A stretch of 64,000 nucleotides of DNA from a virus (IMGVR_UViG_3300000439_000009:42854-106853); one strand, 5' to 3'. Positions 23,690 to 64,000 are shown, counted from the first letter of the stretch. The notes: generated by a model from the sequence alone, not told the origin. Translations and numbers: made by a program.

Positions 23690-26600
23690 TTATTGTGAAC
23701 AAGTTCCTGGTACTGTACTTGTAGTTGAAGATGGGGAACATGGACCACAACCATTAAGATCAGAATAATAAGTAACTGTTTGACATTTTGCATTTACGCC
23801 GCTTCCAATTGTAGTTTGAGATACGGTACTTACTTGACAATTTGGTACACATGATGGAGCAAAGTATGGCGGGAAGAACGGTGGGAAGAATGGGAAGAAT
23901 GGTGGGAAGAATGGTGGGAAGAATGGTGGGAAGAATGGTGGGAAGAATGGTGATGGCGCAACTGTGCAAGCACCATTTGCTGCTGCAGCAAGTGCATCAT
24001 TTGAAGTTAATCTATAAACAGTTTTTGTTACAGTTCTTAATCCAGTAACAGTTGTATCCGTTGGAAGAGAGGATCCAGTAGTTGGACCAGACACTGAAGG
24101 TGCCTGATTATAAGTACCGAGCTGAATATCACAAATAGAGCTTCCAGTGTAGTATGTTACTACTGGAGCAAAGTATGGTGGGAAGAATGGTGGGAAGAAT
24201 GGTGGGAAGAATGGTGGGAAGAACGGTGGGAAGAACGGTGGGAAAAATGGTGGCGCAACGGTGCAATTTGCATTTGCTGCTGCAGATAACGCATCTGCAG
24301 ATGTCGCTCTATAAACAGTTTTGGTTATTCTTCCTGAATTATTAGCTGTAGTATCAGAAGGCATTGAATTAGCAGTATATGGTCCAGTTACATAGGGAGT
24401 AGTAATATAATAATTATTATTCAAATCACATAACGAAGTTCCAATATAATAGGTAACTGCGGTAATATATGAACTAAATACAGCACCGCTATTAGCAGTT
24501 CCGCCTGGACCAGTTGCTACGGAATAACCATATAATTGATAGCCGATATCAGCAGATGTAATTGTATATAAAGTTGTTGTAGCATTTGTACTGCTTGCAA
24601 GAAGTGTATTATTTGCGTCTGCTCTTCTAATGTATGTTGTATAATTTGTTGTATTTGTAAATGTTCCTACATCATATATAGCACTTTGACCTGGAACTGT
24701 ACCGCCATAAAACGAGCCACGTGTTGCAGTAGGTGCGGGAGCAACTGTACAAAGAGAATTAGCTGCTGCTGATAAAGCAGCGTCTGAAGTTAATCTGTAT
24801 ACAGTTTTTGTTATTGATTGAGATCCTGTAAATTGCGTATCTGTTGGGAGCGAAGATCCTGTAAAAGGTCCAGTTACATAGGGAGCATAAATATAATAAT
24901 TGTTTTGAGTACTACAATTTGAAGTTCCAACATAATAAGTAACTGTTCCATTACCTGTTACGGATGCAGAACCATTAGTATAACCTACCCTAGAAGTACT
25001 AACTGTTACTGTTGCACTCTGACCATTACTTAATCCAGAAACGGTAAATGTATTATTTCCAGTAACACTTGATGGACTCAATGTTCCTGCACTTGTATTA
25101 ATTGACCAGGAATAATTTGCATCATAATTGCTAAGAGAAAATGTAAAACCATCTGAAGTTTGTGTAGGAGATGAAAGTGAAGGGGTTAAGCCAGGTATTG
25201 AACAGATAGAATTCGTAGCAGCGGATAAAGCTTCTTGTGCACTAAATCTATATACAGTTTTTACATAATTTCCATTAAAAACTTGAACATTTGTATCTGC
25301 AGGAACTTTATCGTAAAGTGGTCCAGTTACTGAAGGTAATTTTGCATACGATCCATTAAGTGGATTACATTCTGAAGTTCCAGTATAATATGGATGATTT
25401 ACTAATTCTCCACCGCCATAAGTTTGAACAATTTGATATTCTGGCTTTACAGATTGACTAGAATTACTATTGCTGGCATATGTTGTAAAATATATATTTT
25501 GAGCATATATAGAATTTATTGTTATTGTATTTCCTTCGTAAACCAGTATATCTTGTGGCATAGACTTATATAATACATTATTAAATGTGCCAGTTCCTGA
25601 AGCTAAACCACTAATAGTATAGCTAACAACCCAACTATCTGTATGATCAGATGCATCTACACTTAATGTAACTTTATTTGGATCTTTACTATGAGTTGAT
25701 AGGTAGAGATTTTCAGTTCCAGATGAAGTAAATGTGATAGGACTTGAAACAACTTCAGAATTATTTTGTTGAGAGGCCCAGGTGTAGGGCGAAGTAGTAC
25801 CATAAACAACTCCATCGTAATGGGCAAACCAAAAACCTACATTAGTAGAAGATGATTGCTTACTCCATTTAATTTGAAATGTATTATTACCCAAATCAAC
25901 TAAAGATACATAGGGATTTTGATCTGGTATTTGCGTGGTATCGGTTATATAATAATTAAATGGATCTGGTGCAAAAACAGCTGTACCAGTTACATTTGCT
26001 GAATTTGAACTATACCCATTTGCACTAACAGTTATTTTAAAAGTGGCACTACTTCCTGGTGACATATTGCTAACATAAAAAGCCCAAGAATGAGAAGATG
26101 AAATTGGTACAGTTTGCCAATTAAAAATTGGAGGGGTGGGTAATGTAGAGGTATGGCTTATTAATTCTGCTGTATATGTATATCCAGAATTATAATTATT
26201 CACTGTTCCTTGAAAACCATCACCATGATCATGATTTCCGTCGCTATATCCACTTTGAACATTAGCAAATGTAGGCGCAGGTAATGGTGCGTTCACTACT
26301 TGATATAAATTAGAAAAGAAATCGTAATACTTTAAATCATTTCCTTGAACAAGATCTCTTACTATAAAATAATCTTGTGCGCCAGCTTCGTCAGCAGAAA
26401 CGGTATGCGTTGATGATGAATCATAACCCTCGTACCCTCCAGATTGCCCTCCAAGATAAGAATATGGATAAATATCTTGTGCGCCTGATGAAGTTTTTGC
26501 CCATTGAAAAACAGTTACAACAGAGCCTTTGTTATCTTTATACGTTCCTGGTGTAGAATAAAGAATGTCACCAGCTGTTATTCCGCTTGTTTTTATAACA

Positions 26601-27661
26601 CCTGTTGGGGATTTTGCAACTAATGTCGGGGGCGTTAATTGGGTAACTCCTGTAGAAATTTTTTGTGAAGATACTGCTACTGCTGAGGTGCCAACTCCAG
26701 CATTAAAAAATTTTGATCCTCCATTAGAAGCTGTTTCTACACAATATATATATTTACCTACTTCTGCACTTGTTATTGGCTGAGATACCGTGGTGCTTGA
26801 TAAAGGGTTTCCATTTTGAGTTAATTGACTTAAAGTTGTATAAGAATTTACAGCAGCACTAAACCACTGATATGTATATGTTTTTGGCATGTAGCCATCT
26901 GTCATCTGCCATAAAGATGAATAAGATAAAATGGATCCACTTCCATACCCATTAGATGAACTGATCTGTTTAGATATATTTACTGGCGGGTTAGTAACAA
27001 CATAAATTCTTGCAGAACCTTCATCACTTGAATCTTCTCCGTATATATAATGAATTCCATCTGTATCTTTTGTTGTGGTATTTGCTTGAACTGTAAATGA
27101 AACATATAAATCATCATATGTAAAATCTAATAATATTTGAGGAACTTGTGTAGAAGTTTTATCATTAGATAAAATTGGATCAGTTGAATTTGTATTTGAT
27201 ATAGTTAATGGAGAACTTGTATATGTTGAACTATTTAATGTTACCCCGCCCAGACTGGTGGTTGGGTCAGTAAATCCGTTTACATACCAATCAAAATTAC
27301 TTATTGTATATCCGTTAGGGTCCCAGTCCCCCACATATCCAAGTAATTTATTTTGAACATAAACGTTTCCAGTTCCTGCGGGAGCACTTGGATTTGGCAT
27401 AGTTCCTATAACTATCCAAGCTGGTATGTGTTTTTGTGCATCTAAAAAATACGGGTAATTATCTGCATATGGGACGGTAGTCGGAAAAAATCTTCTCCAT
27501 CCGCCTACTCCAGCAATAGTTTTTACATAAATAACCTTTACATCTTTCCAAACAGCGGTTGCAGTTTTTACGGAAACAGTTTTTATTTTATTCCATACGC
27601 TAGATGGGGATGCATTTGGATCACTTGGGTCGCTTCCGCTAGTCTTTACGTATAATGGCAT
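23690..27661 (-). CDS. Minor tail/fibre protein with Ig-like domains, four two-Cys repeats, (PPFF)n tracts and a Cys-rich tip
   Basis: Last large gene of the tail module; S/T/G/Y-rich; Ig-like motifs (YTYQW...AEVGKYIYC.ETASN; YTITSADIGYQL); PPFF tracts. Confidence 0.75.
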   Translation of the reverse strand: MPLYVKTSGSDPSDPNASPSSVWNKIKTVSVKTATAVWKDVKVIYVKTIAGVGGWRRFFPTTVPYADNYPYFLDAQKHIPAWIVIGTMPNPSAPAGTGNVYVQNKLLGYVGDWDPNGYTISNFDWYVNGFTDPTTSLGGVTLNSSTYTSSPLTISNTNSTDPILSNDKTSTQVPQILLDFTYDDLYVSFTVQANTTTKDTDGIHYIYGEDSSDEGSARIYVVTNPPVNISKQISSSNGYGSGSILSYSSLWQMTDGYMPKTYTYQWFSAAVNSYTTLSQLTQNGNPLSSTTVSQPITSAEVGKYIYCVETASNGGSKFFNAGVGTSAVAVSSQKISTGVTQLTPPTLVAKSPTGVIKTSGITAGDILYSTPGTYKDNKGSVVTVFQWAKTSSGAQDIYPYSYLGGQSGGYEGYDSSSTHTVSADEAGAQDYFIVRDLVQGNDLKYYDFFSNLYQVVNAPLPAPTFANVQSGYSDGNHDHGDGFQGTVNNYNSGYTYTAELISHTSTLPTPPIFNWQTVPISSSHSWAFYVSNMSPGSSATFKITVSANGYSSNSANVTGTAVFAPDPFNYYITDTTQIPDQNPYVSLVDLGNNTFQIKWSKQSSSTNVGFWFAHYDGVVYGTTSPYTWASQQNNSEVVSSPITFTSSGTENLYLSTHSKDPNKVTLSVDASDHTDSWVVSYTISGLASGTGTFNNVLYKSMPQDILVYEGNTITINSIYAQNIYFTTYASNSNSSQSVKPEYQIVQTYGGGELVNHPYYTGTSECNPLNGSYAKLPSVTGPLYDKVPADTNVQVFNGNYVKTVYRFSAQEALSAATNSICSIPGLTPSLSSPTQTSDGFTFSLSNYDANYSWSINTSAGTLSPSSVTGNNTFTVSGLSNGQSATVTVSTSRVGYTNGSASVTGNGTVTYYVGTSNCSTQNNYYIYAPYVTGPFTGSSLPTDTQFTGSQSITKTVYRLTSDAALSAAANSLCTVAPAPTATRGSFYGGTVPGQSAIYDVGTFTNTTNYTTYIRRADANNTLLASSTNATTTLYTITSADIGYQLYGYSVATGPGGTANSGAVFSSYITAVTYYIGTSLCDLNNNYYITTPYVTGPYTANSMPSDTTANNSGRITKTVYRATSADALSAAANANCTVAPPFFPPFFPPFFPPFFPPFFPPFFPPYFAPVVTYYTGSSICDIQLGTYNQAPSVSGPTTGSSLPTDTTVTGLRTVTKTVYRLTSNDALAAAANGACTVAPSPFFPPFFPPFFPPFFPPFFPFFPPFFPPYFAPSCVPNCQVSTVSQTTIGSGVNAKCQTVTYYSDLNGCGPCSPSSTTSTVPGTCSQ
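23861..23956. repeat. 12-bp tandem repeat (gggaagaatggt)n encoding PPFF
   Basis: Seen directly; near-identical units. Confidence 0.95.
24170..24253. repeat. 12-bp tandem repeat encoding PPFF
   Basis: Seen directly; same unit as 23861-23956. Confidence 0.95.
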
Positions 27662-52154: not shown

Positions 52155-53735
52155 TTATTTTACTTTTCTGCCTTCGCCTTTTCTGGCTCTACCGCTGACC
52201 GCCTCTTCTGGGGCTGCATTTCTGGTTTTATCTCTTGCTCTTGAATCCATAGTTTGAGCTTGGATTTCTGCAGCTTTGGCTGCTGGATCAAATACTTCAT
52301 CGCCAGAATCAATTGGATTCATACCCAATCTCATTCTAACTTCATTTGGCTTTAATACCTGAGTTGTAAGGTAGATTTGATCAATTTGAGCTTGTGCCAA
52401 TTCATCAGTAAGAGTAAGTTCTTCAAACTTAAATTTAAACATATCAGTAAATTCTTTAATAATTTTATTAATTTGAATTTCTAATGCATCCTGTGCTGGT
52501 CTTGTGACCTGCTCTTTAAATATCTTATCATCTAATGGGCTTGGTGTCCCGTTACCGATTTTAGATAATGGGGTTCTATGAGCAATAAGAATACGATCTC
52601 TATTTTCTATAGCATAGTTGCTAAAGGATGAATCTTGTATCCCCGCCTCAATTGGCTCCATATTAAACTCTACACGGGCCGAGTCATTATCTGCTGGAAG
52701 AGGAATATAAAGAGTTCTGTGATTTCTGCCTTTAAGACCTATTTGGAAAAATTCTAAAAGCTTTCTTTCAGAATCAGCATTTAAACGAGCACCCTTGGTT
52801 GTAATAATATAACGGGGCACAGCTTTATTCTCAAAATAATCTAAATTATAACGGGAAGCAAACTCATCACCAGCAACTGCATTCTTAGCAGACAAAATAT
52901 CTGGAACGCCATAATAGGTATTTGTTGGTGTGTATTTCTTAAAATGAATAACTTCGTTAGGACGTGGATCTGTGCCTATTTGGTCCTGTGTGGTCGTGTC
53001 GCCAAAGTTTCTGAAATAGGTATAGCGGTTGTATACTACCTGCACAAAACCGTCTCTATGCCGTCTTATACGCATTGTAATGGCAGGGATATGGCCTATG
53101 TAACCAATCTCTCCAGCAGATGTTCTACCTACTTCAAGATAGCCATTTCCAGTTGTTTCTAGGTCTTTGTAAACCTTACGCAAGACCTCTTCAAATGAAT
53201 CATCTGAGTTTAAGCTTTCAACTTTTTCTCTCATCATTACTCTAGCACGAGAAATTTTTCTTCTAACTTTTTCTAAAACTGGTTCATTTTCTGAAGCATC
53301 TTCTAGCTTGTCTAAAACTTTTTGAGTTTCTACAAATTTATATCCAAGGCCAACTGTATTTGCAACCTTAGCATCAATTGCTGCGTGGTGATAAGGGGAA
53401 ACATCATAAAGCTGAGCAAGGTACATAACATTATAAGGTGGTTGTACAATCTGGAATAATGAATATCCAGTTAAATCTAGTGGATCAAGCTTTTTTGATT
53501 TAGCATCATCTAAACCAGTATAAGCTTTATTTAATTTACGAGAAGCATTTCGTCTAAAGTTTGGGTTAAGGTTTTCAATTTTTAAAAGGTCTTCAGCCTT
53601 TGCCAAAAATGGGTCATCAAAATCTGTCTCCTGCAATTCACGTGGAGAAGTGCCTAAAGCTGCTCCTTCAATTTCAAGAGAATAACCTTTAGCAAAATCA
53701 TCGTTATCATCTACTACTGTAGCTCTGTGTTCCAT
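52155..53735 (-). CDS. Portal protein
   Basis: SPYHHAAI..K, D....GNGYLEV.R, NEVIHFK..P...YYGVP, YFEN.AVP, PNEVR..LG..P..GD. Confidence 0.92.
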   Translation of the reverse strand: MEHRATVVDDNDDFAKGYSLEIEGAALGTSPRELQETDFDDPFLAKAEDLLKIENLNPNFRRNASRKLNKAYTGLDDAKSKKLDPLDLTGYSLFQIVQPPYNVMYLAQLYDVSPYHHAAIDAKVANTVGLGYKFVETQKVLDKLEDASENEPVLEKVRRKISRARVMMREKVESLNSDDSFEEVLRKVYKDLETTGNGYLEVGRTSAGEIGYIGHIPAITMRIRRHRDGFVQVVYNRYTYFRNFGDTTTQDQIGTDPRPNEVIHFKKYTPTNTYYGVPDILSAKNAVAGDEFASRYNLDYFENKAVPRYIITTKGARLNADSERKLLEFFQIGLKGRNHRTLYIPLPADNDSARVEFNMEPIEAGIQDSSFSNYAIENRDRILIAHRTPLSKIGNGTPSPLDDKIFKEQVTRPAQDALEIQINKIIKEFTDMFKFKFEELTLTDELAQAQIDQIYLTTQVLKPNEVRMRLGMNPIDSGDEVFDPAAKAAEIQAQTMDSRARDKTRNAAPEEAVSGRARKGEGRKVK

Positions 53736-54065
53736 TTAAATAATCCCCATTTTTTTCTTTTGCTCTAAATCTTCTTTTAGAGCTGGGATGTCCCATTCGT
53801 CTGCAACTAATCCCCAGTCCATTCTTTGCTTTTGATTATCATACTCTTCGGCAGAAACTGGGCGGTGTCCAGAAAACCATACTGGCTCTCCATCTTCAAC
53901 GCCATAAGACTTGGCAAAATTTCTAAGTTCTGTAATCTTTTTTACATCACCTTTAATTGCATAAATACACATAAAATTACCATCTTCATCAGATACTAAT
54001 TTGCCGTCTGGCATCTGCCAGAGGTAGGTTCCATAATTAACTTCTTCAACAGGTGTAATTTTCAT
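53736..54065 (-). CDS. Conserved phage protein upstream of the portal
   Basis: 109 aa, abuts the portal ATG; TGGTAAAAT upstream. Confidence 0.65.
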   Translation of the reverse strand: MKITPVEEVNYGTYLWQMPDGKLVSDEDGNFMCIYAIKGDVKKITELRNFAKSYGVEDGEPVWFSGHRPVSAEEYDNQKQRMDWGLVADEWDIPALKEDLEQKKKMGII

Positions 54066-54117
54066 ATGAGTCTATTTTACCACTTTCTTTATCTGTAGCG
54101 AATATTGTGTACTGAAA

Positions 54118-54252
54118 TTAACCAATAACGGGAAACATCTGAGTACATCGGTCACAGTAATTATAAGTTTTACCAGTAAATGGACATGAGCCAGCCATTT
54201 TTAAGGTATGACCTTTAATCCCACACATCATTTTTTTTAGTATTAACAGCAT
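54118..54252 (-). CDS. Tiny Cys/His protein (44 aa; not in the ORF track)
   Basis: Hand translation MLLILKKMMCGIKGHTLKMAGSCPFTGKTYNYCDRCTQMFPVIG*; CxxxGH...C...CxxC. Confidence 0.55.
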   Translation of the reverse strand: MLLILKKMMCGIKGHTLKMAGSCPFTGKTYNYCDRCTQMFPVIG

Positions 54253-54424
54253 CTTTTATTCTCTTCCATTTTCCATATAAGTTGGGTTTGGCTGAACCCA
54301 TATATTCTTGACCCGTCTCAAGATCAATCAAAAGCCATTTTTCTGGACATTTTGTATGTATAGTTAAATCAATAGCCTCATCAAATTCCTGGACTTCAAT
54401 TCCAGTTATTAGTTTTCTAACCAT
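54215..54424 (-). CDS. Hypothetical protein
   Basis: 69 aa, TKCPEKWLLIDLETGQEY. Confidence 0.6.
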   Translation of the reverse strand: MVRKLITGIEVQEFDEAIDLTIHTKCPEKWLLIDLETGQEYMGSAKPNLYGKWKRIKDAVNTKKNDVWD

Positions 54425-54427
54425 TTA

Positions 54428-55114
54428 TTAAATAAACTTTCCGTTATATATATGACTTATTTCAATATGATTAATATTAACAGTTTTTGGCATAGATGCC
54501 ACCCATCTTATTGCCTCCGCCATATCTTCGGCAGATATCGCATTATCTTTTTTTATTACATCTGTATCTATAGAACCAGGACATATCTCACTTATCTTAA
54601 TTCCATATTCTGGAAATTCCATACGCATTGTATCTATTAGTGCCATCTGACCACGCTTTGCATTTGAATAGTTCCCGCCGCCCCTAAAAGGTATTTTTCC
54701 ACATAAAGATGTAACAAAAATAATTGTTGGTGAATCAGATTTTTTCATGCACGGAACAAATAGTTGAGACAGGTACATGGGGCCTGATACATTTATATCA
54801 TAAGCCATTCTAAAATTTTCCATAGTTTCATTAATAATAAAAGTAGGACTAGCCCCACCCCCAGCATTATTAACTAAAAGATCTAAAGAAATATTTTTAT
54901 ATTTAGTAAAAAATTCTTTTATTTGATTAGAATCTGTTATATCTACTTGATTAATTTCAACATTGTCAGATTCCAACTCTTTCATTGCTTCTAAATTTCT
55001 AGATAATGCAATAACCTTATAGTTATTTTGCTCTAGCAATTTGACAGTAGCTTTTCCTACTCCTCTACTTGCTCCAGTTACTATGGCTGTTTTTTGAATC
55101 AAAGTGTATTCCAC
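54428..55114 (-). CDS. Short-chain dehydrogenase/reductase (YdfG-like)
   Basis: TGASRGVG, LVNNAG, YxxxK (YSNAK), C-terminal AEAIRWVASMP..VNI..IEI. Confidence 0.9.
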   Translation of the reverse strand: MEYTLIQKTAIVTGASRGVGKATVKLLEQNNYKVIALSRNLEAMKELESDNVEINQVDITDSNQIKEFFTKYKNISLDLLVNNAGGGASPTFIINETMENFRMAYDINVSGPMYLSQLFVPCMKKSDSPTIIFVTSLCGKIPFRGGGNYSNAKRGQMALIDTMRMEFPEYGIKISEICPGSIDTDVIKKDNAISAEDMAEAIRWVASMPKTVNINHIEISHIYNGKFI

Positions 55115-55704
55115 TTAAAATACTCACGATATTTTTCAAGAGGAATAACATTTGGATCAACCCACCAGTCTTCATGAATTTCTCTAACAACTAAAGAGTA
55201 TCCAAGAGAATCTAATATTTCTCTCTGCATATCTCGAATTGACGTATTTTTCCAATACATATTAGCATCATGCTCAAATGTTATAATAGAAAATCTATAC
55301 TTATTTAAAGGCACAGCAATCAATCCATGCAATGTAGTATACGCACTTCCTACTGGCCTACCGTTTTGATCATAGCCAGCATCAATATCTAATTGAAGGT
55401 AATCTATCTGATTAGGAAAATTATTTTCTTCAAAATATTTAATATAATCAAATTTTGTTGCATCGCCTAGTATGCAAGGGTTTTTTCTATTTTCAGAAAC
55501 TTCTTTATGAAGTTCTGGTACTATCTCAAAAGATACGCCTTTCCAGTCAAATTCATTTTCAAGCCTATAAGTATTACTTCCATTTTTTGAATGCGCAGCA
55601 CCCAATTCAACAAAATAACCTTCTTTTTTATTATTTAATATATTTAATACAAATTCTTCTTGACTGCTTGTTGGCTGATACCCACTAACCATTCTATCCT
55701 CCAA
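55099..55704 (-). CDS. FkbM-family (Methyltransf_21-like) methyltransferase
   Basis: GYFVELGA.....SNT..LE...W.G...E, IDYLQLDID, ITFEH, L...GY, EDWWV. Confidence 0.75.
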   Translation of the reverse strand: MEDRMVSGYQPTSSQEEFVLNILNNKKEGYFVELGAAHSKNGSNTYRLENEFDWKGVSFEIVPELHKEVSENRKNPCILGDATKFDYIKYFEENNFPNQIDYLQLDIDAGYDQNGRPVGSAYTTLHGLIAVPLNKYRFSIITFEHDANMYWKNTSIRDMQREILDSLGYSLVVREIHEDWWVDPNVIPLEKYREYFKWNTL

Positions 55705-56263
55705 ATATCTCAGGGTTTAATTTTACTTTTGTACCATCTTTTTCTCTTATAAAAGAAGTTGAAAAGTATCTTATGCTATCACTTTGTACTGGTGTTGTTC
55801 CGTGTAATATGTCCCCAGCATGAATTATTAAAGATTTTGCTTTGGGCTTTAACTTTATATTTAAATCTGGATATTCAATTTCTCCCCCAAGATAATTATC
55901 ATTATAATAAAGAACAACTCCGTATGCAGAAGATATATTTCCCATTTTTGTATAATTATCTTTATGTCTACCCATGGCAACATCTTTAGAAAATCTATGA
56001 ATTGCATTTATTTTTGTTATATGATCAAATGATTTAAAAAAGGTGCTGACCCTATCATTAATATTATTAATTACTTCTGGAGGATTTGTATATAAATATA
56101 AAGACTTATCGCTCCAGAATTCAGAAGTGTTGTACTCATCTTTATCAACGTGCCAATCTTCTTCTTTTGATAAATAAGCTATTTCTAATATTTCTTGACA
56201 TTCTTCATCTGTTATGAAATTTTCTATTTCATATATATTATCATATATTTTATTAATTATCAT
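55694..56263 (-). CDS. 2OG-Fe(II) oxygenase, P4H-like (#8)
   Basis: HKD; VLYYNDNYLGGEI.YP; HG...V...IRY. Confidence 0.88.
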   Translation of the reverse strand: MIINKIYDNIYEIENFITDEECQEILEIAYLSKEEDWHVDKDEYNTSEFWSDKSLYLYTNPPEVINNINDRVSTFFKSFDHITKINAIHRFSKDVAMGRHKDNYTKMGNISSAYGVVLYYNDNYLGGEIEYPDLNIKLKPKAKSLIIHAGDILHGTTPVQSDSIRYFSTSFIREKDGTKVKLNPEIFGG

Positions 56264-56266
56264 ATA

Positions 56267-56983
56267 CTATTCCGACAGCATTGAGCTCTGAGGTGCTTTA
56301 TTAAACTCCATATCATTATGTATCCAATGTCCTGGAACCATATATTTAAAACCAAATTTAACAGTATGAGCAGTGTGAAAATATGGAGCAGAAGCTGGAA
56401 AAATAATAATACTATTTGCTTTTGGTTTAATTCCTACATCAAAAGCATTCTTATCCTTTGCTTCTTCAAAATCCATTGGTGTAGAAGGTTTTTGATTAAC
56501 TCCATCATAATCTACAATACTGAAAGAAATTTCCCCGCCTTCGCAATCATCATTTAGATACATAACTAAAGAATACCTTAATGTTTGATCTCCATCTAAT
56601 TGATCAAAATGCGATCCCATTGAAGTTCCTGAATAATATTTTTTTATATTAAAAGTAGGGAATAGGCGTGGTTCATCATAATCACCTAAAGATTCAGCAT
56701 AATCTTTAGATACATTATAAAGTGCATCTATTACAGAATTATATACATATGACATTTTTTCTTTTAAAGGATCTTGCAATTGATTAATTCTATTTAAATC
56801 AAATGATTTTGTTTCTCCATAAATAAAATCTTTGTCATTTGAAGATGTCCATGGGTACCATAAATTATCTTCATTTGAAGAAGAAATGTCATCTAACTCT
56901 TTCAATGTATTAATAAAATTATCAAAATTTGGCATTACATTTTCATAATAATAAATCTTTTCATCCAATACTTTTTTATCCAT
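56267..56983 (-). CDS. 2OG-Fe(II) oxygenase, P4H-like (#7)
   Basis: HFD; VMYLNDDCEGGEI; IIFP....HTA..V..G.KY. Confidence 0.88.
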   Translation of the reverse strand: MDKKVLDEKIYYYENVMPNFDNFINTLKELDDISSSNEDNLWYPWTSSNDKDFIYGETKSFDLNRINQLQDPLKEKMSYVYNSVIDALYNVSKDYAESLGDYDEPRLFPTFNIKKYYSGTSMGSHFDQLDGDQTLRYSLVMYLNDDCEGGEISFSIVDYDGVNQKPSTPMDFEEAKDKNAFDVGIKPKANSIIIFPASAPYFHTAHTVKFGFKYMVPGHWIHNDMEFNKAPQSSMLSE

Positions 56984-57731
56984 TTAATATATCCTCTATT
57001 TTATATTTGTTTCCATCTTTATCTAACTTAAAACCTTCTTTAAGAAGTTCTTGCCATTCTTTTTTTTCTTCAGCTTGAGCTTCTCTGATCTTTTTCATTT
57101 CTTCTGCCCAAGCATCTCTAGTTTCTTGTGGGTAAGCATCTTCTTCTCTATCATCCCAGAAAGAACCAAGTGTGTATCTTGTTCCTGATTCTATTAAAGT
57201 TACCTCATGCATATTTTCAAACCCGCCTGCAAATACAGCAAGCATTCCTACTTTTGGCTTTAAACTAATATCATGAGAAGGGAACTGAAGCAGACCACCC
57301 TCAAAATTATCATTTAAGTATAAAAATCCAGCGTATCTACTTCTTTCAAAAGGCCCAGTATTGCCATGTTCATCTGTATTATCAGAATGAAGCCTGGCAT
57401 ATGCTCCTGGTTCCCATTTTTGAGTATGGTATCCAATTTGAACTACTTTATTTGGTTCAATGTCATGAACTGCTGCAATTGCTTCAATGATACCTTTTTT
57501 AATATCAGAAAAAACAGTTGGTTTTAAATTAAATTCTGCTAGCTCTGGATCACCATCTTGCGGTAGAACTGAAGAATAAGATTCATAAAAAGATATAGGA
57601 GTCCAAGATAATTTTTCATTGCTTGCTTGTTTTTCTAAAACTTGTATTAAAGAATCACATTCTTCTTTTGTTAAAAAATCTTCATAAACAAGTATATCTT
57701 TTGTTAATCTATTTTTTTTATTTAAGATCAT
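56976..57731 (-). CDS. 2OG-Fe(II) oxygenase, P4H-like (#6)
   Basis: HSD; LYLNDNFEGGLL.FP; HEV..I.SG.RY; start at 57731 gives an ATGA overlap. Confidence 0.88.
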   Translation of the reverse strand: MILNKKNRLTKDILVYEDFLTKEECDSLIQVLEKQASNEKLSWTPISFYESYSSVLPQDGDPELAEFNLKPTVFSDIKKGIIEAIAAVHDIEPNKVVQIGYHTQKWEPGAYARLHSDNTDEHGNTGPFERSRYAGFLYLNDNFEGGLLQFPSHDISLKPKVGMLAVFAGGFENMHEVTLIESGTRYTLGSFWDDREEDAYPQETRDAWAEEMKKIREAQAEEKKEWQELLKEGFKLDKDGNKYKIEDILNG

Positions 57732-58636
57732 CTTATCCTCACACACTTACTAATATCTTTCATTTGCACAGATTCTCTATAATCTTGCATTATACTTTCT
57801 TGCATTCTTTCCCACTCTGCCTTCCCATATTTTTCTTCATTTTCAAACCACTCATCTTGACCCAAATGAAATTTTTGCCAATACATTCTTGTAAAAAATT
57901 TTTCTCCATTATAAAGATTTTTTACTCCATGTAAATAAACTTTACCGTTTTCAGTTAAAATATCTGGATGGCCTGATGGGAAAACAACAAAATCACCTTT
58001 TTTAGGTTTATACCCAATAAGCTTACTATCAATAACAAAATCCAATCCACCGCCGTCGTAATCATCATTTATATAAGAAGTTGTAGTTATAGCAAATTTA
58101 TATCCAGGAGTTATTATTGGCTCTCTTATGTAATCAGAATGATAACTCATAGAAAGATCTGAACCATTTCCAGCATTATCAAAATATTTACATAAGCTTG
58201 GGCCTGTCCATCTCCATGTTGGAACTTCTTCTGGAAAAGTTTTAAAATTATCTGCTTCATTTTGATCAACTGGGTTTTTTGTTTTTGATACAGATGTTAG
58301 ATCAAAATCTATATCAAACCTTTTAATATAATCATTATTTACTAAATGAAAAGCTTTTACTAATTCTGTAATAAAATATTTTTGATCTTCTTGAGTTTTA
58401 TTTATTGGATTAATATCTTTAGATATTTCCATTTCATTTTTTGTTTTATTAAAATAAATTCCAAACTCTTCTATTTTTTCACCAAAAGTATACCAATCTT
58501 TCCATGGCTCAAAAATTTCTTCTTCGCTTTTTCCTATGCTTTTAACAATTTCATACATCTTATCATTATCTTCAAAAACATTGCTATAAACAAGAATATT
58601 TGGGTATATTTCTTCTACATCAAAATTATTTTTCAT
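57728..58636 (-). CDS. 2OG-Fe(II) oxygenase, P4H-like (#5)
   Basis: HSD; YINDDYDGGGL.F; KP..GD.VVFPS; HGV.....G.KF. Confidence 0.88.
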   Translation of the reverse strand: MKNNFDVEEIYPNILVYSNVFEDNDKMYEIVKSIGKSEEEIFEPWKDWYTFGEKIEEFGIYFNKTKNEMEISKDINPINKTQEDQKYFITELVKAFHLVNNDYIKRFDIDFDLTSVSKTKNPVDQNEADNFKTFPEEVPTWRWTGPSLCKYFDNAGNGSDLSMSYHSDYIREPIITPGYKFAITTTSYINDDYDGGGLDFVIDSKLIGYKPKKGDFVVFPSGHPDILTENGKVYLHGVKNLYNGEKFFTRMYWQKFHLGQDEWFENEEKYGKAEWERMQESIMQDYRESVQMKDISKCVRIR

Positions 58637-59306
58637 TTATTTTATTGCCTTTCCTGTCATAATCATAATAATTTATTTTTTTAATAAATCCAACAATTAC
58701 ATATCTAATTGGACCAGAACTAACTTTTCTGACTCCATGATGATAATCTTCATTGCCTGGAAATAATAATAAAGAACCAGGTTCTGGTTTTAATTCTAAA
58801 TTTTTATTTTTAAAAAATAATTGACCATCATTGTAATTATTATTTAAATAAATAATTGCAGCATATCTTATAGAGGGATCTGTATCTTGATCCGTATGAC
58901 ATTTTAGCTCTACGCCTTCTTGCATCCTTTGAATGCTACCAAATCCATTGCAGGCAATATCTGGTTCAATTTGATATATAAAATTATTTATTCTTTCTGT
59001 TATGGTAGCAGATATTGATTGCTTAGAAATATTTAAATTTTTATCTTCCCAATTTTGAGTTATTTCAAATAAACCTTCTGCAACTAAATTTTCTACATCA
59101 TCTCTTCCAAACTTTTCTAGACAGAAAGGTTTTAAATTTGACATATACTCTATCAACCATTCATCTTCAGACGTGTTATTAATAAAATCATTAAAATATT
59201 TAATTTCAGAATCAAGCAAATAGTTTTTTACAACAAGCACGTTGTCTATTGGCTCTTCTACTATAAAATTGTTTTTTAATAATTTTTCTTTTAACACGCT
59301 TAGCAT
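58626..59306 (-). CDS. 2OG-Fe(II) oxygenase, P4H-like (#4)
   Basis: HTD; IIYLNNNYNDGQLFF; HGV..V..G.IRY. Confidence 0.88.
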   Translation of the reverse strand: MLSVLKEKLLKNNFIVEEPIDNVLVVKNYLLDSEIKYFNDFINNTSEDEWLIEYMSNLKPFCLEKFGRDDVENLVAEGLFEITQNWEDKNLNISKQSISATITERINNFIYQIEPDIACNGFGSIQRMQEGVELKCHTDQDTDPSIRYAAIIYLNNNYNDGQLFFKNKNLELKPEPGSLLLFPGNEDYHHGVRKVSSGPIRYVIVGFIKKINYYDYDRKGNKINEK

Positions 59307-59983
59307 TATGGCTTTTTATCTCCTGTATGCTCTGTTATATTCCAAAAAAATGGACAGGTATATCTAATTCCGCTTTTTACTTCTGTAACTCCGTGTATAA
59401 AATTTTTATCTCCTGGGAAAAAATAAGCTGCACCTTTTTTTGGTTTAAATTTAATTTCTTGATTAGGAAAATACAATTCTCCGCCTTCATAGTCATCGTT
59501 TAAATAAAACAAACTTGAAAGATCGTACCAAGGAAAATCATTTGGTTTTCCAGCATCTGGACCATCCCACAATTCTTTATCTGCATGAGGATTTTGAAAT
59601 TGTCCTGGGAGCCATCTAACTATAGTTTGTCCAGTTGGGGTGGCTTTTACATTATAAAAATTTTCTATGACTGGCTGTAGTCTTTCAAATAAACCAACTA
59701 TTACTGGTACAATTCTTGGATCATTTTTATTTAAAGATGGAGAACTGGCTACACGGTCTTTCCAATAGCTAGAATCATAAATTACAGTTCCATTTTCATT
59801 TACATGATCTTCTGTAATATCCCAAATATTTATATTTCTTGCTGCATTATCTAAAAAATTAATTTCTTCTTCAGTCATAAAATTTTCTAATTCAACAATC
59901 ATAGATTTATCATTTCCAAAAAATCCAGAAGGAGTTATTGATTTTGGAGCATGGTTATGAATGTCTTTATTTGTTATTTCCAT
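59306..59983 (-). CDS. 2OG-Fe(II) oxygenase, P4H-like (#3)
   Basis: HAD; FYLNDDYEGGELYFP; HGV..V.SG.RY; start at ATG 59983, 6 nt after TGGTATAAT. Confidence 0.88.
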   Translation of the reverse strand: MEITNKDIHNHAPKSITPSGFFGNDKSMIVELENFMTEEEINFLDNAARNINIWDITEDHVNENGTVIYDSSYWKDRVASSPSLNKNDPRIVPVIVGLFERLQPVIENFYNVKATPTGQTIVRWLPGQFQNPHADKELWDGPDAGKPNDFPWYDLSSLFYLNDDYEGGELYFPNQEIKFKPKKGAAYFFPGDKNFIHGVTEVKSGIRYTCPFFWNITEHTGDKKP

Positions 59984-59989
59984 ATTATT

Positions 59990-59998
59990 ATTATACCA
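59990..59998 (-). promoter_or_regulatory. Extended -10 promoter (TGGTATAAT) inside the oxygenase island
   Basis: 6 nt upstream of ATG 59983. Confidence 0.65.
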
Positions 59999-59999
59999 C

Positions 60000-60710
60000 C
60001 TAACTAGATGAAGTAAAATCATTAACTTTCATAGTTAAAGACTTTACTTCGTGTTTTCCTATTGAATTGCCTCTGTGATCAACGGCATTTCTATAAAAAT
60101 TAGTAAATTCTCCTTTAGCAGTAATTTCTGCCCAAGCTTTTCCTCTTTCTTCTCTAAATTCGTAATGATCTTCTGCAAAAATTTTATCATAAACATCTAA
60201 TTCAATTTCAGATAAATTAGTTAAAGATAATGGAATAAAAGTAGCAATCGGTGTTCCTGCTTTTAAAGTAAATTCAAAATTTGGTTTTGTAATTCTCCAT
60301 GCTATTGGATAAGGTTCGTCCAAAAAAGAAGTTGATATTACAGAGGTGTATGGGATCAAACCATCAATAAAAAGATTTGCTGGAGGTATGCAAAGTATAG
60401 ACATATTTTCATCTGTTTTAAATTGAATTCCGCTGTGAAAACTTATAGTTGCATTGGCTCTATTTGTATCTGTTAATCTTTCTCCTTGAAGTATATTTAC
60501 ATGGTCTGAGGTTGTATCTACTACTCCGTCCCAAATAAATTTAATATCTTCAGTAAATGAAATTGTCCAGCCTATTTGATTTGCTAAACTTAATGGAAAA
60601 CATTTATAAACATGTTTGCCCGCAGTTTCATCCATCCAGTCTCTTTGAACTCTTGACTGTTCTATTTTAACTGGATGACCTGGAATCTTATATGCTAAAA
60701 CTTTAGTCAT
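60000..60710 (-). CDS. DUF6065-like protein
   Basis: RDWMDET...H.YKC.PL..ANQ.GW, PP.N..IDG..P...VI.T, GTP.A..IP (family name from memory). Confidence 0.6.
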   Translation of the reverse strand: MTKVLAYKIPGHPVKIEQSRVQRDWMDETAGKHVYKCFPLSLANQIGWTISFTEDIKFIWDGVVDTTSDHVNILQGERLTDTNRANATISFHSGIQFKTDENMSILCIPPANLFIDGLIPYTSVISTSFLDEPYPIAWRITKPNFEFTLKAGTPIATFIPLSLTNLSEIELDVYDKIFAEDHYEFREERGKAWAEITAKGEFTNFYRNAVDHRGNSIGKHEVKSLTMKVNDFTSSS

Positions 60711-61380
60711 TATCTGGCATATACATTTCTGGCGTATGGAATTTTTTATTATAGTCTAGCATGGTAACAATTGAATATTTTGTTCCAGATGTTACTGGCA
60801 TAGCTCTATGTGGATACATATAGTTTGAAGGGAATATATATAGATCTCCAGCTTTAGGTTTAATATTTAGTTCTTGTAGTCTAAAATAAAGCTCCCCGCC
60901 TTCATAGTCATCATTAATATATGCAACAAGCGATACTGTGCAATTATAAGAAAAACCATGATCATGGTGTTCTTGGAAATGCTGTCCTGGACCATACTTA
61001 ATAAAGTTAAAAGCTTCCCAATATTTTAATTCCATAATGTTAAACATGCTTCGATAATCTTCAACCGCTGCAAATTGAGCATCATAAACATCTTGCCATA
61101 TATCTTGTAAGCGTAATGAATCTTCTGTTGAGTCTGCCTGAATGTCTGTTTTTTTAAATTTAAAATCATAGCAATCACGATATTCTGGCATTAGCTGCTG
61201 ATATCCTACATATGCTGGGTACCAATGATATCTTTTACCATCATCAGATATCTGACCATAAGGTGCTGCTTTGCCCAATATATTTTCTAATTTATTAATA
61301 ACATCAAATTCTGGCTTAATAACGTTTCTATAACAAACAATACCATTGCCTAGCATTTCTTTTTCAGTCCAAGTTTGCAT
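60703..61380 (-). CDS. 2OG-Fe(II) oxygenase, P4H-like (#2)
   Basis: HHDHG; YINDDYEGGELYF; FPSNYMYPH...PV.SGTKY; start at 61380 preferred. Confidence 0.9.
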   Translation of the reverse strand: MQTWTEKEMLGNGIVCYRNVIKPEFDVINKLENILGKAAPYGQISDDGKRYHWYPAYVGYQQLMPEYRDCYDFKFKKTDIQADSTEDSLRLQDIWQDVYDAQFAAVEDYRSMFNIMELKYWEAFNFIKYGPGQHFQEHHDHGFSYNCTVSLVAYINDDYEGGELYFRLQELNIKPKAGDLYIFPSNYMYPHRAMPVTSGTKYSIVTMLDYNKKFHTPEMYMPDND

Positions 61381-61387
61381 TTTATTC

Positions 61388-62167
61388 CTAACTATACTCT
61401 CTTTTAGTCCAGACTTTTTTTCTGTAAATCCCGCCATCTGGTTTGCGGTACATTTTCATATTATCCATCATTTTATCATAAATAGTATTTGTTGACAGTA
61501 TTTCTATTTCACTTTGCCAATTTTCTCTCTTAAATGGAAGAATTTGCATATAAGGAGTTCCCGCTGGAATAGTGCCTTCCCAGTCATCTATTATAAAAAA
61601 TGGAAAGGTTCCAGATAAATGAACTTTATCATTATCTACAATACCAGTTGTATTTAAAAATGGTAAATCAAATCTGTTCATCGGTGTCATGTATAAACAA
61701 CTATAACCTTCTGGAACTTCCAATCCCCAATCTGGTTGCCAAGCAAAATGATCTTTATAATAACCCTTGGGGTGTTCAAATTGTGGCATTGGTGGCCTTG
61801 CTGTACAAAAATCTTTATACTGATTATCTTCTATCTTTACATCAATTTTATTTTGACTGTTTTTAAAAAATGTTATATCGCAAGGAGTTTTTAAAACATA
61901 TCCAGTTGTAAAAGCATCTAAAATAGCTGGACAAGCTTTCCACGTTGGTATCATCCCATAATCATCTGTAGTTCCTTCTTTGGGAAAAGGGCAAACTGTT
62001 TTTGGAGCTTTATAATATTCTCCATTATAAGGATTTTTTGCAAACCTATCTGCCTCTTTATACCAATCTGGTATTAAACTTTGTGTTGGGCTGGGGGCTG
62101 AAATGCTATCTTTATTAAGCCATGGCCTAAAAGATTTAAATTTAATAATGTTATTTGTTAATTTCAT
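61388..62167 (-). CDS. Conserved oxygenase-cluster protein (distantly DUF6065-like)
   Basis: IPDWYK, TWKACP...DA...GY....P.D, P.GYS.L...P.NR..LPF...GIVD.D, IPAGTP..Q..PFKRE; shares its layout with 60000..60710. Confidence 0.55.
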   Translation of the reverse strand: MKLTNNIIKFKSFRPWLNKDSISAPSPTQSLIPDWYKEADRFAKNPYNGEYYKAPKTVCPFPKEGTTDDYGMIPTWKACPAILDAFTTGYVLKTPCDITFFKNSQNKIDVKIEDNQYKDFCTARPPMPQFEHPKGYYKDHFAWQPDWGLEVPEGYSCLYMTPMNRFDLPFLNTTGIVDNDKVHLSGTFPFFIIDDWEGTIPAGTPYMQILPFKRENWQSEIEILSTNTIYDKMMDNMKMYRKPDGGIYRKKVWTKREYS

Positions 62168-62170
62168 AGA

Positions 62171-62878
62171 TTAATGACTTAATGTATTTATATCGGTCAT
62201 AACAACAACACAATACTTTGTGCCAGATTTTATAGGCAAAGAAGCATGTTCATAAATATAATTTGATGGGAAAATAGCAATATCCCCTACTTTTGGAGTA
62301 TGTACAAAATTATCTAATCTTGGAAACTTAATTTCCCCGCCTTCATAATCATCATTAATATAAATAACTGCAGAAACAGTACAATTATAAGCTGGGCCAT
62401 GATCAGCATGAATATTAAAATGAGTACCTTCACCTTCATATTTTACAAAATTAAAAGCTTCATAATATACAACATTAATGCCCCAATAATGAGCATAATC
62501 ATCTATACAAGTTTTTAATTTTTGATATATTTCTTCATGCAAATCAATTAAATCAGAATTAAATTCATCTCTCGGACCAAGATTTTCTTGTTTATATTTA
62601 AAATCTACACAATCTCTTGCTTTTTTAATTGGGGAAGTTGAATTTGTAACTTGCGCTTCGGACCATGTATATTTTTTATTACTTGATAAATTTAATTCAA
62701 GAGTATCAATATATCTTTTTGAGTCTTCTAAAGAAAAAACATTATGATAAATATTTAAACCTAAACCAGGATTACTAATTAAAATATCATTATTAATTAA
62801 TCGTGACACTCTGTTTGAGGCTGTTTCTGATCTATCTTTAGTAAACCAAGGGTTTTCATTTTCATCATAAACATTCAT
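62171..62878 (-). CDS. 2OG-Fe(II) oxygenase, P4H-like (#1)
   Basis: HADHG; YINDDYEGGEI.FP; FPSNYIYEH...P..SGTKY; close paralog of 60703..61380. Confidence 0.9.
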   Translation of the reverse strand: MNVYDENENPWFTKDRSETASNRVSRLINNDILISNPGLGLNIYHNVFSLEDSKRYIDTLELNLSSNKKYTWSEAQVTNSTSPIKKARDCVDFKYKQENLGPRDEFNSDLIDLHEEIYQKLKTCIDDYAHYWGINVVYYEAFNFVKYEGEGTHFNIHADHGPAYNCTVSAVIYINDDYEGGEIKFPRLDNFVHTPKVGDIAIFPSNYIYEHASLPIKSGTKYCVVVMTDINTLSH

Positions 62879-62902
62879 TTTAAATCCTTTATCTATTAAA
62901 AC

Positions 62903-63142
62903 TTACTCGGACTTTCCCCATTTATTTAATGGGCATTCTGCATTTGAAAGATGAACTTTAGCAGACATGAAACATCCGCATTCTAAACATTGTTTTGTTA
63001 TTGAAACTAATCTTGGACATGAAATGCATATTTCTAATCTATTTTTTGCAATTTCTGAATCTTTTACTATTTTGTTTGGATCTAAAAGATGCCAAGGACG
63101 TGAATCTCCAACATTTTTTTTCCAATCATTCCACTTTGACAT
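62903..63142 (-). CDS. Small Cys-rich protein (DUF6171-like), paralog of 23142..23399
   Basis: RPW.LLDP...RL.IC.SCP.L...T.QC.ECGCFM..K......CP..KW. Confidence 0.75.
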   Translation of the reverse strand: MSKWNDWKKNVGDSRPWHLLDPNKIVKDSEIAKNRLEICISCPRLVSITKQCLECGCFMSAKVHLSNAECPLNKWGKSE

Positions 63143-63154
63143 ATTAACCTTTTT

Positions 63155-63610
63155 TTAATCTTTTGGCAAACTAAAACTTGATCCATCCCAAATATAACCT
63201 AAACCAAATAATTTTACATCAGATGCATCTATAACTAAAACTTTATTTGAAAAAGCAGCTTCAAATTTTTCAATATCATTATGTTTTGTTACTCTACCAA
63301 AAATTTTATTTTTTGATAAAAATGCAAGACTTAATGAATTTTCTTCATGACCCCATATATCAAATACATCGTGACCGACAACTCTTTCTTTATTGTCTGG
63401 AAGATTAAATTTTTGTCCGTCCCAAAAAGAATCAAATGTAAGATTATCTAAACCAGTTACATTCATTGCAATTGCATTTTGATTAGATGTACCAGATTTC
63501 CATCTTTTTGAAATTTCTGAATCAGATTCAAATATTATAATTTCAAAAACTTCAAATAAATTAGAATTTTCTTCTATTTCAGTAGCAAGTGCATATTTAT
63601 CAAATTTCAT
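63155..63610 (-). CDS. Small protein downstream of the PPFF gene (possible fibre assembly factor)
   Basis: 151 aa with an internal duplication (FWDGQKFNLP / IWDGSSFSLP). Confidence 0.65.
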   Translation of the reverse strand: MKFDKYALATEIEENSNLFEVFEIIIFESDSEISKRWKSGTSNQNAIAMNVTGLDNLTFDSFWDGQKFNLPDNKERVVGHDVFDIWGHEENSLSLAFLSKNKIFGRVTKHNDIEKFEAAFSNKVLVIDASDVKLFGLGYIWDGSSFSLPKD

Positions 63611-63642
63611 TTTTTATCCTTTTATTAATTATTTTTATAACT

Positions 63643-63679
63643 ATGATAGAGGGCATATATAGATTATACCCTCTACCAT
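63643..63679 (-). promoter_or_regulatory. 15-bp hairpin overlapping GGTATAAT
   Basis: Minus strand atggtagagggtata-atctata-tatgccctctatcat; both mismatches are G.U pairs in RNA. Confidence 0.55.
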
Positions 63680-63687
63680 TATTAACA

Positions 63688-64000
63688 TCAAACAACACAT
63701 CCTCCACAACTGCAATAAGCTGGTCTTAGGCATCTAACTCCACTGCATGAAGCGCAGAAAGATGGTGGGAAGGATGGCGGGAAAAACGGTGGGAAGAATG
63801 GTGCAGCAAAGTATGGTGGGAAGAATGGTGGTGGGAAATATGGTGGGAAAAACGGGAAGTACGGGAAATATGGTGGGAAGAACGGCGGGAAGAATGGGAA
63901 ATATGGCGGGAAGAATGGTGGGAAGAACGGCGGGAAGAATGGTGGGAAGAACGGGAAGTATGGGAAGAATGGTGGGAAGAATGGTGGGAAGAATGGGAAG
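63688..64000 (-). CDS. 3' end of a (PPFF/PPYF)n protein with Cys-rich tip (partial; not in the ORF track)
   Basis: Hand translation ends ...FPPYFAAPFFPPFFPPSFPPSFCASCSGVRCLRPAYCSCGGCVV* (TGA at 63688-63690); runs off the window edge. Confidence 0.85.
   Translation of the reverse strand, partial: FPFFPPFFPPFFPYFPFFPPFFPPFFPPFFPPYFPFFPPFFPPYFPYFPFFPPYFPPPFFPPYFAAPFFPPFFPPSFPPSFCASCSGVRCLRPAYCSCGGCVV
63758..64000. repeat. 9/12-bp tandem repeat array encoding PPFF/PYF/PPYF
   Basis: Same gggaagaatggt unit as the arrays at 23.9 and 24.2 kb, interspersed with 9-bp variants. Confidence 0.95.

Follow-up and report, generated by a model that had tools for sequence, protein, structure and literature searches.

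The 64,000-nucleotide stretch of DNA IMGVR_UViG_3300000439_000009:42854-106853, which we call the window, belongs to an uncultured lake phage and makes up the 3' portion of a viral contig of 106,853 bp with a CheckV completeness of 99%. Every gene of the window is located on the minus strand, and the order of transcription is read from high coordinates downward. Positions 54428-63999 contain the 3' end of a gene for a long Pro-Phe repeat (the tract gene), followed by a run of genes (the island) that encode two small partner proteins, eight 2-oxoglutarate (2OG)/Fe(II)-dependent oxygenases (W1-W8), two DUF6065-family proteins, a putative methyltransferase and a short-chain dehydrogenase/reductase (SDR). 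The subject of this report is the linkage of the tract gene with the island, and the possibility that the tract is modified by the oxygenases, which resemble prolyl 4-hydroxylases (P4Hs). Coordinates are those of the window, unless they are given as genome positions.

The open reading frame (ORF) of the tract gene at 63688-63999 is open-ended, and its 5' part lies beyond the contig end. The first 80 residues of the visible part consist of 36 Pro, 34 Phe, 6 Tyr, 2 Ala and 2 Ser residues, which are arranged as a PPFF/PFF/PPYF repeat, and its C-terminus is a 23-residue tip with 7 Cys residues, as expected from a preliminary description of this DNA, according to which the gene ends in at least 75 repeat codons and a Cys-rich tip. 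The synonymous variation at the third codon positions of the tract (CCA 26/CCG 10, TTC 31/TTT 3, and TAC/TAT) fits the PPFF frame. The full architecture of the tract protein is seen in relatives and consists of a conserved N-terminus, two to four FN3 domains, the tract and a variable tip. The preliminary description referred to (PPFF)n virion proteins; the tract is present as described, whereas the status of a virion protein is deduced from the relatives, because the gene is truncated at the contig end. The contig break lies inside the fibre/tract region, because an ORF at the contig start (genome 1-3868, at least 1289 residues), which continues past that end, has an N-terminus matching the fibre gene located immediately ahead of the tract gene in several relatives. 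The PPFF repeat itself is an assembly breakpoint, because many contigs in IMG/VR likewise terminate in PPFF repeats.

PPFF tracts are also present, as previously noted, in a 1323-residue tail-module protein encoded at 23690-27661, which is a second candidate substrate. The two tracts of this protein (residues 1137-1164 and 1238-1267) link repeated Cys-containing domains and are in frame with long flanking sequence. The protein contains four copies of a domain of about 70 residues (VTYY.GTS.C...ALSAAAN..CTVAP), the last two of which are separated by the PPFF linkers, and its C-terminus is Cys-rich.

All eight oxygenases of the island match the family PF13640, seven of them above the gathering score of 27 bits. 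They are W1 (62171-62878, 41.8 bits, with the pattern HADH...H...K), W2 (60703-61437, 58.4 bits), W3 (59306-60022, 41.5 bits), W4 (58626-59306, 49.6 bits), W5 (57728-58636, 25.6 bits), W6 (56976-57746, 33.7 bits), W7 (56267-56983, 35.8 bits) and W8 (55694-56263, 28 bits). W5, which scores below this threshold, is a protein of 302 residues with inserts and an intact triad. Alignment indicates that the HxD motif, the distal His and a Lys or Arg about 10 residues later are kept in all eight proteins, in accordance with the preliminary description. The matches of W2 and W3 to sequences in the PDB are peptidyl Pro/Lys hydroxylases only, namely the P4Hs of Bacillus anthracis and Paramecium bursaria chlorella virus 1 (PBCV-1), LH3 and P3H1; W2 matches the B. 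anthracis enzyme with an E value of 4e-5 (phmmer), and the best match of W3 is the PBCV-1 P4H (5C5T). The fold comparison was carried out with W2 as the representative of the eight, using an AlphaFold 2 (AF2) model with a predicted local distance difference test score (pLDDT) of 87.8. The top Foldseek matches of this model (E values of 4e-10 to 7e-8) are the prolyl hydroxylase PPHD/EF-Tu P4H, PBCV-1 vCPH, PHD2, the algal CrP4H with (Ser-Pro)5, human C-P4H-II and LH3, with the EF-Tu prolyl hydroxylase ranked first and 5C5T second, and AlkB and TET chains are absent among the Foldseek matches listed. These results support the assignment of the island oxygenases, by sequence and by predicted structure, as P4H-like enzymes akin to protein prolyl/lysyl hydroxylases, with a corresponding predicted activity. 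Thus, the comparison with P4H, PHD, AlkB and TET that the preliminary description had proposed favours the P4H type, with peptidyl Pro/Lys hydroxylases as both the sequence and the fold neighbours of W2.

The orthogroups of W1, W2, W3, W5, W6 and W7, among which that of W2 is best conserved, recur in relatives in broadly the same order with identities of 30-80%. The paralogues of the island are therefore probably ancient and non-redundant enzymes. The genome encodes 11 oxygenases of this kind in total, three of which lie outside the window. These three are shorter (genome 28274-30949; hmmsearch E values of 4e-24 to 2e-18) and are located 2-5 kb from a canonical dUTPase gene at genome 32833-33222.

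The linkage of the tract gene with the island was analysed in both directions. In the forward direction, IMG/VR was searched with a degenerate codon pattern for (PPFF)4, which yielded at least 120 loci. PF13640 genes are present in all 23 long contigs found by this pattern, mostly in 6-13 copies. Among the distinct tract ORFs for which the contig extends far enough downstream, island genes are found within 2.5 kb on the 3' side and on the same strand in 121 of 139 cases, and the remaining ORFs mostly encode large tail-fibre-type proteins like that of 23690-27661. In the reverse direction, DUF6065 alone served to retrieve IMG/VR loci, in two samples, the second of which was seeded with a divergent DUF6065, and tracts were called by a relaxed pattern plus inspection to take in short ORFs and PPGFFA-type repeats. 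A tract ORF ends at most 3.5 kb upstream in 65 of the 66 informative loci of the first sample, with a median gap of 145 bp, and is located just upstream in all 57 informative loci of the second sample, when short ORFs are counted. A Pro-Phe-tract gene is thus present just upstream on the same strand in 122 of 123 informative islands. The co-occurrence and synteny that the preliminary description had anticipated are thus observed from either side.

The portal type of this phage is encoded by 13 of the 23 long contigs, with 51-57% identity except for one with 97%; an identity of 51-57% corresponds approximately to the distance to the Streptomyces phages of Stanwilliamsviridae. Two other contigs, G012 (46% GC) and G009 (39.5% GC), have no structural genes in common with this phage, and both contain the tract gene followed by the island. 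G012 encodes a portal of its own, at a distance of about 60 kb from the island, as well as a protein with a weak match to a sheath, and no portal or sheath match was found in the 88-kb fragment G009. In G018, the unit is located upstream of the fibre gene, instead of between the fibre and portal genes, and the adjacency of tract gene and island is kept. The same location is observed in the sub-lineage of contig G008, as seen upon sampling of 80 of its portals (G018, L323 and L324). An apparent joint absence of tract and island from G008 was therefore rejected, because the contig starts too late to contain the unit. These results support, at the level of sequence, the conclusion that the tract gene and the island form a tightly coupled unit that recurs in hundreds of contigs from phages and on at least three unrelated backbones. 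The (PPFF)4 pattern also occurs 10 times in reference genomes, always in contigs of metagenome-assembled genomes, five of which contain island genes; these five look like mis-binned phage sequences.

Comparison with the phage that has the 97% identical portal indicates how this unit evolves. The DNA of the two phages is 91% identical from position 54418 downward, including p69, p109 and the portal gene, whereas the island is only 65-78% identical, patchy and rearranged. The mosaic boundary is located at 54418-54428, ten bases below the stop codon of the SDR gene. The tract of this other phage has a non-Cys tip, and its DUF6171 gene is absent. Because the adjacency is kept on unrelated backbones and in G018, and because the island has diverged from that of a phage with a near-identical portal, the tract gene and the island behave as one mobile, fast-evolving cassette.

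The tip of the tract protein co-varies with the genes that directly follow the tract gene. In this phage, these genes encode a 151-residue partner protein without a Pfam family (63155-63610) and a 79-residue Cys-rich DUF6171-like protein (62903-63142), which scores 24.7 bits with PF19668 against a cut-off of 27 and 60.7 bits with phrog_13558. The 151-residue protein consists, by eye, of two copies of a domain of about 75 residues, which are encoded by two separate small ORFs in L017, and proteins of this type are found together with DUF6171 after Cys-tipped tract genes. Among the island-adjacent tract proteins, a DUF6171 gene is present just downstream for 22 of 23 Cys-rich tips and for 8 of 98 other tips, and several of these eight exceptions are short tips that contain Cys. 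In a tree of 69 N-terminal regions, the Cys tip and DUF6171 each change at least five times, and all four independent pairs agree, although a sign test on four pairs cannot give a p value below 0.125. The co-variation ties at least one downstream gene to the tract protein, as judged from gene content, and has no direct bearing on the oxygenases.

Tract proteins of other forms are present in the loci retrieved through DUF6065. In some of them, the tract is a six-residue PPGFFA repeat followed by an intein-like domain. A C-terminal domain that resembles bacterial inteins (Hint) is encoded 3' of the tract in L050:8069-8521, as well as in L152, L162, L167 and L194; its best match in the PDB is 2LWY (E value of 7.7e-4 over the whole domain), and the Pfam Hint families score under their cut-offs. 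Self-cleavage of this domain would free the C-terminus of the tract, giving an end like that of the many proteins that terminate in ...FFPPxFK. The tract proteins of the second DUF6065 sample are small, with about 110-127 residues between stop codons. In L228:7264-7935 and L252:5992-6705, a hydrophobic ORF of about 225-240 residues, which is membrane-protein-like by eye, separates the small tract gene from the first oxygenase genes.

The presence of two DUF6065-like genes in the island, as given in the preliminary description, is borne out by profile searches. The protein encoded at 60000-60710 matches PF19541 with 115.5 bits and also phrog_7084. The protein encoded at 61388-62167 (dufA) gives no Pfam match, but aligns with DUF6065, matches phrog_7084 with 125 bits, and contains the family-invariant residues W, Y, C, G, N, G and P. 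Cys37 of DUF6065 is invariant. The model of the DUF6065 protein (AF2, pLDDT of 73.7) resembles trimeric dUTPases with Z scores of up to 10.2 at 7-14% identity. The structural matches with Z scores of at least 8 are 12 chains, which represent 11 dUTPases and the dUTPase-derived herpesvirus protein pp71, and unrelated matches have Z scores of about 4. When the whole genome is searched with the dUTPase profile PF00692 at an E value of 0.1, the DUF6065 genes are not matched and only the canonical gene at genome 32833-33222 is found, so that DUF6065 shares with dUTPases the fold, as modelled, and not the sequence profile. Searches against isolate phages with DUF6065 (tblastn) and with the island (megablast) gave no match. 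Cyanophage S-RIM4 and about 50 tailed viruses of haloarchaea encode distant homologues of dufA. In Halorubrum virus VOLN27B (L200) and S-RIM4 (L201), they adjoin ribonucleotide reductase genes, and no oxygenase is annotated within 7 kb.

The dUTPase fold, the ribonucleotide reductase genes beside the homologues, and a weak match of W8 to Tet_JBP (25.2 bits, below the cut-off) would be expected if the island modifies nucleotides or DNA bases, with the DUF6065 proteins handling nucleotides and the oxygenases oxidizing bases. However, a canonical dUTPase is encoded elsewhere in this phage, none of the eight oxygenases reaches the Tet_JBP cut-off, and no AlkB or TET chain is among the fold neighbours listed for W2. 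In addition, the island is located in the structural gene block and not among the replication genes, and no gene for a glycosyltransferase, a kinase or a thymidylate-synthase-like protein is recognised in it. We therefore consider nucleotide modification very improbable.

The last two genes of the island encode a putative methyltransferase and an SDR. The methyltransferase (55099-55704, 201 residues) was previously described as FkbM-type. Its gene is present, and its match to PF05050 is weak (13.4 bits, cut-off of 22.7 bits, E value of 0.088), with no NCBIfam match. PF05050 is found on 24% of the members of its neighbour cluster in ESM-Atlas, which we take as a lead only, and the FkbM-like assignment is weakly supported by these sequence comparisons. 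A 61% identical copy of this gene is located in G012 about 66 kb from the island of that phage. The SDR (54428-55114) was previously described as YdfG-like; the protein is a classical SDR, with 139.5 bits for adh_short (PF00106) and with the motifs VTGASRGVG (TGxxxGxG) and YSNAK (YxxxK) readable in the translation. The SDR gene is followed by genes for two small conserved proteins (53736-54424) and for the portal (52155-53735). The genes of the island overlap or are separated by 3-24 bp, in agreement with the tightly packed same-strand run of the preliminary description, and this operon-like series is located directly upstream of the portal. There are only two larger gaps, of 77 bp 3' of the tract gene and of 149 bp ahead of the p109 gene. 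The number of promoter- and terminator-like sites in a consensus scan did not exceed that in shuffled sequence.

Among published systems, the nearest is the tandem dioxygenase array of cyanophage Syn9 (gp41-gp54). Like the island, it consists of many tandem same-strand 2OG/Fe(II) dioxygenases of distinct families and includes a dUTPase-fold protein with a conserved Cys, for which the island has eight oxygenases and two DUF6065-family genes with the invariant Cys37. Phage arrays of this composition were reported by Iyer et al. 2010 (PMC2938197), so that the preliminary statement that the pairing has no description requires a restriction: tandem arrays with a dUTPase-fold protein are already in that paper, while literature searches returned no paper on PPFF repeats in phages, on DUF6065, or on the pairing of tract and oxygenases. 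Syn9 gp43 matches the DUF6065 profile (E value of 2.7e-7) and dufA (E value of 6.5e-8). The Syn9 array (L392, 32965-43144) directly follows the tail-fibre genes gp32-39. Unlike the island, it encodes two tryptophan halogenases and a JmjC-type enzyme, and no Pfam match of these types (halogenase, JmjC/MINA) is found among the island proteins. Moreover, none of the Syn9 proteins matches the hidden Markov model of the island oxygenases at an E value of 0.01, and Syn9 lacks a Pro-Phe-tract gene, with at most 11 P/F/Y/W residues per 20-residue window.

The Syn9 array was read by Iyer, Abhiman, de Souza and Aravind as a secondary-metabolite cluster that is not directed at proteins (PMC2938197), and gp43 as a DUF6065-family homologue extends this reading to the island, which might accordingly make or tailor a metabolite, either a small molecule or a released peptide, with the tract protein serving as a carrier at most. 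The SDR and the methyltransferase-like gene of the island fit such a pathway, as do the sulfotransferase, adenosine 5'-phosphosulfate (APS) kinase and glutathione peroxidase that are added in relatives, and the small tract proteins of the second sample resemble a short leader followed by a repeat core. A likeness to clusters for ribosomally synthesized and post-translationally modified peptides is limited to gene order, with the repeat-bearing gene first and the tailoring enzymes after it. However, no gene for a non-ribosomal peptide synthetase, ATP-grasp enzyme, halogenase or transporter is recognised in the island. In addition, those characterised enzymes to which the oxygenases are most closely related have proteins as substrates, and FN3 domains, which are typically found in surface proteins of virions, are present in tract proteins of the type of this phage. 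A metabolite as the product is therefore quite unlikely.

The reading that we prefer is that the unit is a conserved cassette consisting of a fibre-region protein with a Pro-Phe tail and enzymes that most likely modify this tail, with the tract as the substrate of the oxygenases. We estimate its probability, from sequence comparisons, to be roughly one half. The tract as substrate is the best available explanation because of the kinship of the enzymes and the strict, backbone-independent linkage. According to this reading, P4H-like 2OG/Fe(II) oxygenases would hydroxylate prolines of the (PPFF)n tract, and the paralogues may differ in the positions or residues that they modify. A very hydrophobic polymer would thereby be converted to a polar one of an extensin- or collagen-like kind. 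The DUF6171 and small-domain proteins might serve the Cys-rich tip, and related phages would add tailoring enzymes for sulfation and for hydroxylation of the Asp/Asn type. The residues that are modified and the location of the product in the virion are what we infer, and the further assembly-line steps of the preliminary description (oxidation or epimerisation, and O-methylation) are conjecture.

Several points weigh against this reading. Accessory genes are known to accumulate in islands beside tail-fibre genes, and the adjacency may reflect an insertion site instead of a function. PPFF is not known to be a substrate motif of any P4H. Most of the linkage comes from few lineages, and shared descent explains much of the count. 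Joint loss of tract and island within a lineage was not found; joint absence is seen only in the distant Streptomyces phage Muntaha, which lacks (PPFF)2, and no Streptomyces is among the hosts named in the summary of oxygenase matches. The dUTPase fold and the ribonucleotide reductase neighbours of the DUF6065 homologues give hints of nucleotides. S-SCSM1, ACG-2014f, S-RIM4 and the Methylophilales phage Melnitz carry such oxygenases and no tract, S-SCSM1 with as many as 24 of the PF13640 type, and such enzymes therefore have other substrates elsewhere. The island without PPFF proteins, which the preliminary description had named as a refutation, is thus almost never observed when the island contains DUF6065, whereas PF13640-rich cyanophages without a tract do exist. 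Finally, three paralogues of this phage are located outside the island.

The latter two points, together with the EF-Tu prolyl hydroxylase as the best fold match of W2, would be accounted for if the island is a fibre-adjacent accessory region for host takeover. The oxygenases would then act on host or other phage proteins, such as EF-Tu or ribosomal proteins, as does bacterial PPHD, or would merely consume 2OG, and the tract gene would be the last gene of the fibre module by a favoured insertion site. The arrays of Syn9 and of S-SCSM1 (L215, 211341-219702), the latter without a Pro-Phe tract, also adjoin tail-fibre genes. A role in host nitrogen/2OG metabolism is the standing guess for phage oxygenases in a paper on cyanophages, according to which the functions of 2OG/Fe(II) oxygenases in viruses have not been investigated (PMC9602691). 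However, the constant neighbour of the island is neither the fibre nor the portal gene but the tract gene, which holds for 122 of 123 islands and three backbones and when the unit moves. In addition, downstream genes co-vary with the tip of the tract, and the whole series is arranged like a single operon that immediately precedes the portal gene. Host takeover is therefore in our view an unlikely function, although it is the most serious competitor of tract modification among those considered.

Modification of the tract has partial precedents. The PBCV-1 enzyme vCPH (5C5T) is likewise a virus-encoded P4H-type enzyme with virus-encoded Pro-rich repeats as its presumed substrate. It differs in being a single enzyme of a virus with a eukaryotic host, with other repeat chemistry and without a rule of gene adjacency, whereas the system described here combines a Pro-Phe polymer with DUF6065 partners and with eight to thirteen paralogous enzymes. 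The PBCV-1 P4H reportedly acts on (Pro-Ala-Pro-Lys)n-type peptides, a result attributed to Eriksson and coworkers in 1999. The maturation of plant extensins and hydroxyproline-rich glycoproteins resembles the proposed process in its P4H-type enzymes, contiguous prolines and repetitive structural protein, but proceeds on a Ser-Pro(n) repeat instead of Pro-Pro-Phe-Phe, and the glycosyltransferase that is part of the comparison has no recognised equivalent in the island.

Enzymes added to the cassette in relatives extend these comparisons. In L017:3297-6294 (G009) and L162:8077-9331, genes for an APS kinase (PF01583, 65.6 bits), Sulfotransfer_2 and an Asp/Asn beta-hydroxylase (Asp_Arg_Hydrox) are located beside the oxygenase genes. 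The island of G012, on an unrelated backbone, includes a gene for a glutathione peroxidase (L204:7586-8203; 88 bits with PF00255). Hydroxylation followed by sulfation of co-encoded repeat proteins was predicted for bacteria by Iyer et al. 2010 (PMC2938197), in operons that combine dioxygenases of the beta-hydroxylase/phytanoyl-CoA-hydroxylase type with sulfotransferases, 3'-phosphoadenosine 5'-phosphosulfate (PAPS) synthetases and collagen-like or tail-collar proteins. The APS kinase, sulfotransferase and Asp/Asn beta-hydroxylase of the relatives match this scheme by analogy, in that a co-encoded low-complexity or fibre protein would be hydroxylated and then sulfated. Unlike the cassette, the bacterial operons, which are themselves a prediction, have Gly-rich collagen-like repeats or tail-collar proteins as substrates, and the island of this phage is without a sulfotransferase.

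A more far-reaching version of tract modification, which we regard as doubtful, is that non-redundant hydroxylases, with sulfotransferases in some relatives, turn the ribosomally made hydrophobic (Pro-Pro-Phe-Phe)n tail of a fibre-associated protein into a heavily hydroxylated polymer. The modifications might comprise sulfate, hydroxyprolines (3-, 4- and dihydroxy) and perhaps hydroxyl groups on Phe/Tyr. This polymer would resemble extensin or mussel-foot proteins and would have a free end set by self-cleaving intein-like domains or Cys knots. It would then represent a new class of tailored viral biopolymer for host attachment.

Aquatic phages carry many genes for 2OG/Fe(II) oxygenases, for which sensing of 2OG/nitrogen and secondary metabolites have been the earlier guesses. 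The cassette places a small repeat-bearing protein beside the candidate enzymes in more than 100 of the contigs examined, and thereby offers a concrete and cheaply testable alternative. A sulfur-assimilation role is assumed for freshwater phages with cysC (PMC10914622); the location of phage cysC beside a sulfotransferase gene in relatives suggests that it supplies PAPS for sulfation and not for sulfur assimilation, and this would be its role if the proposed modification is true. Bacteriophages would then hydroxylate their own structural proteins post-translationally with multi-enzyme batteries, and protein engineering would gain a novel polymer of Pro and Phe as well as novel specificities of P4Hs.

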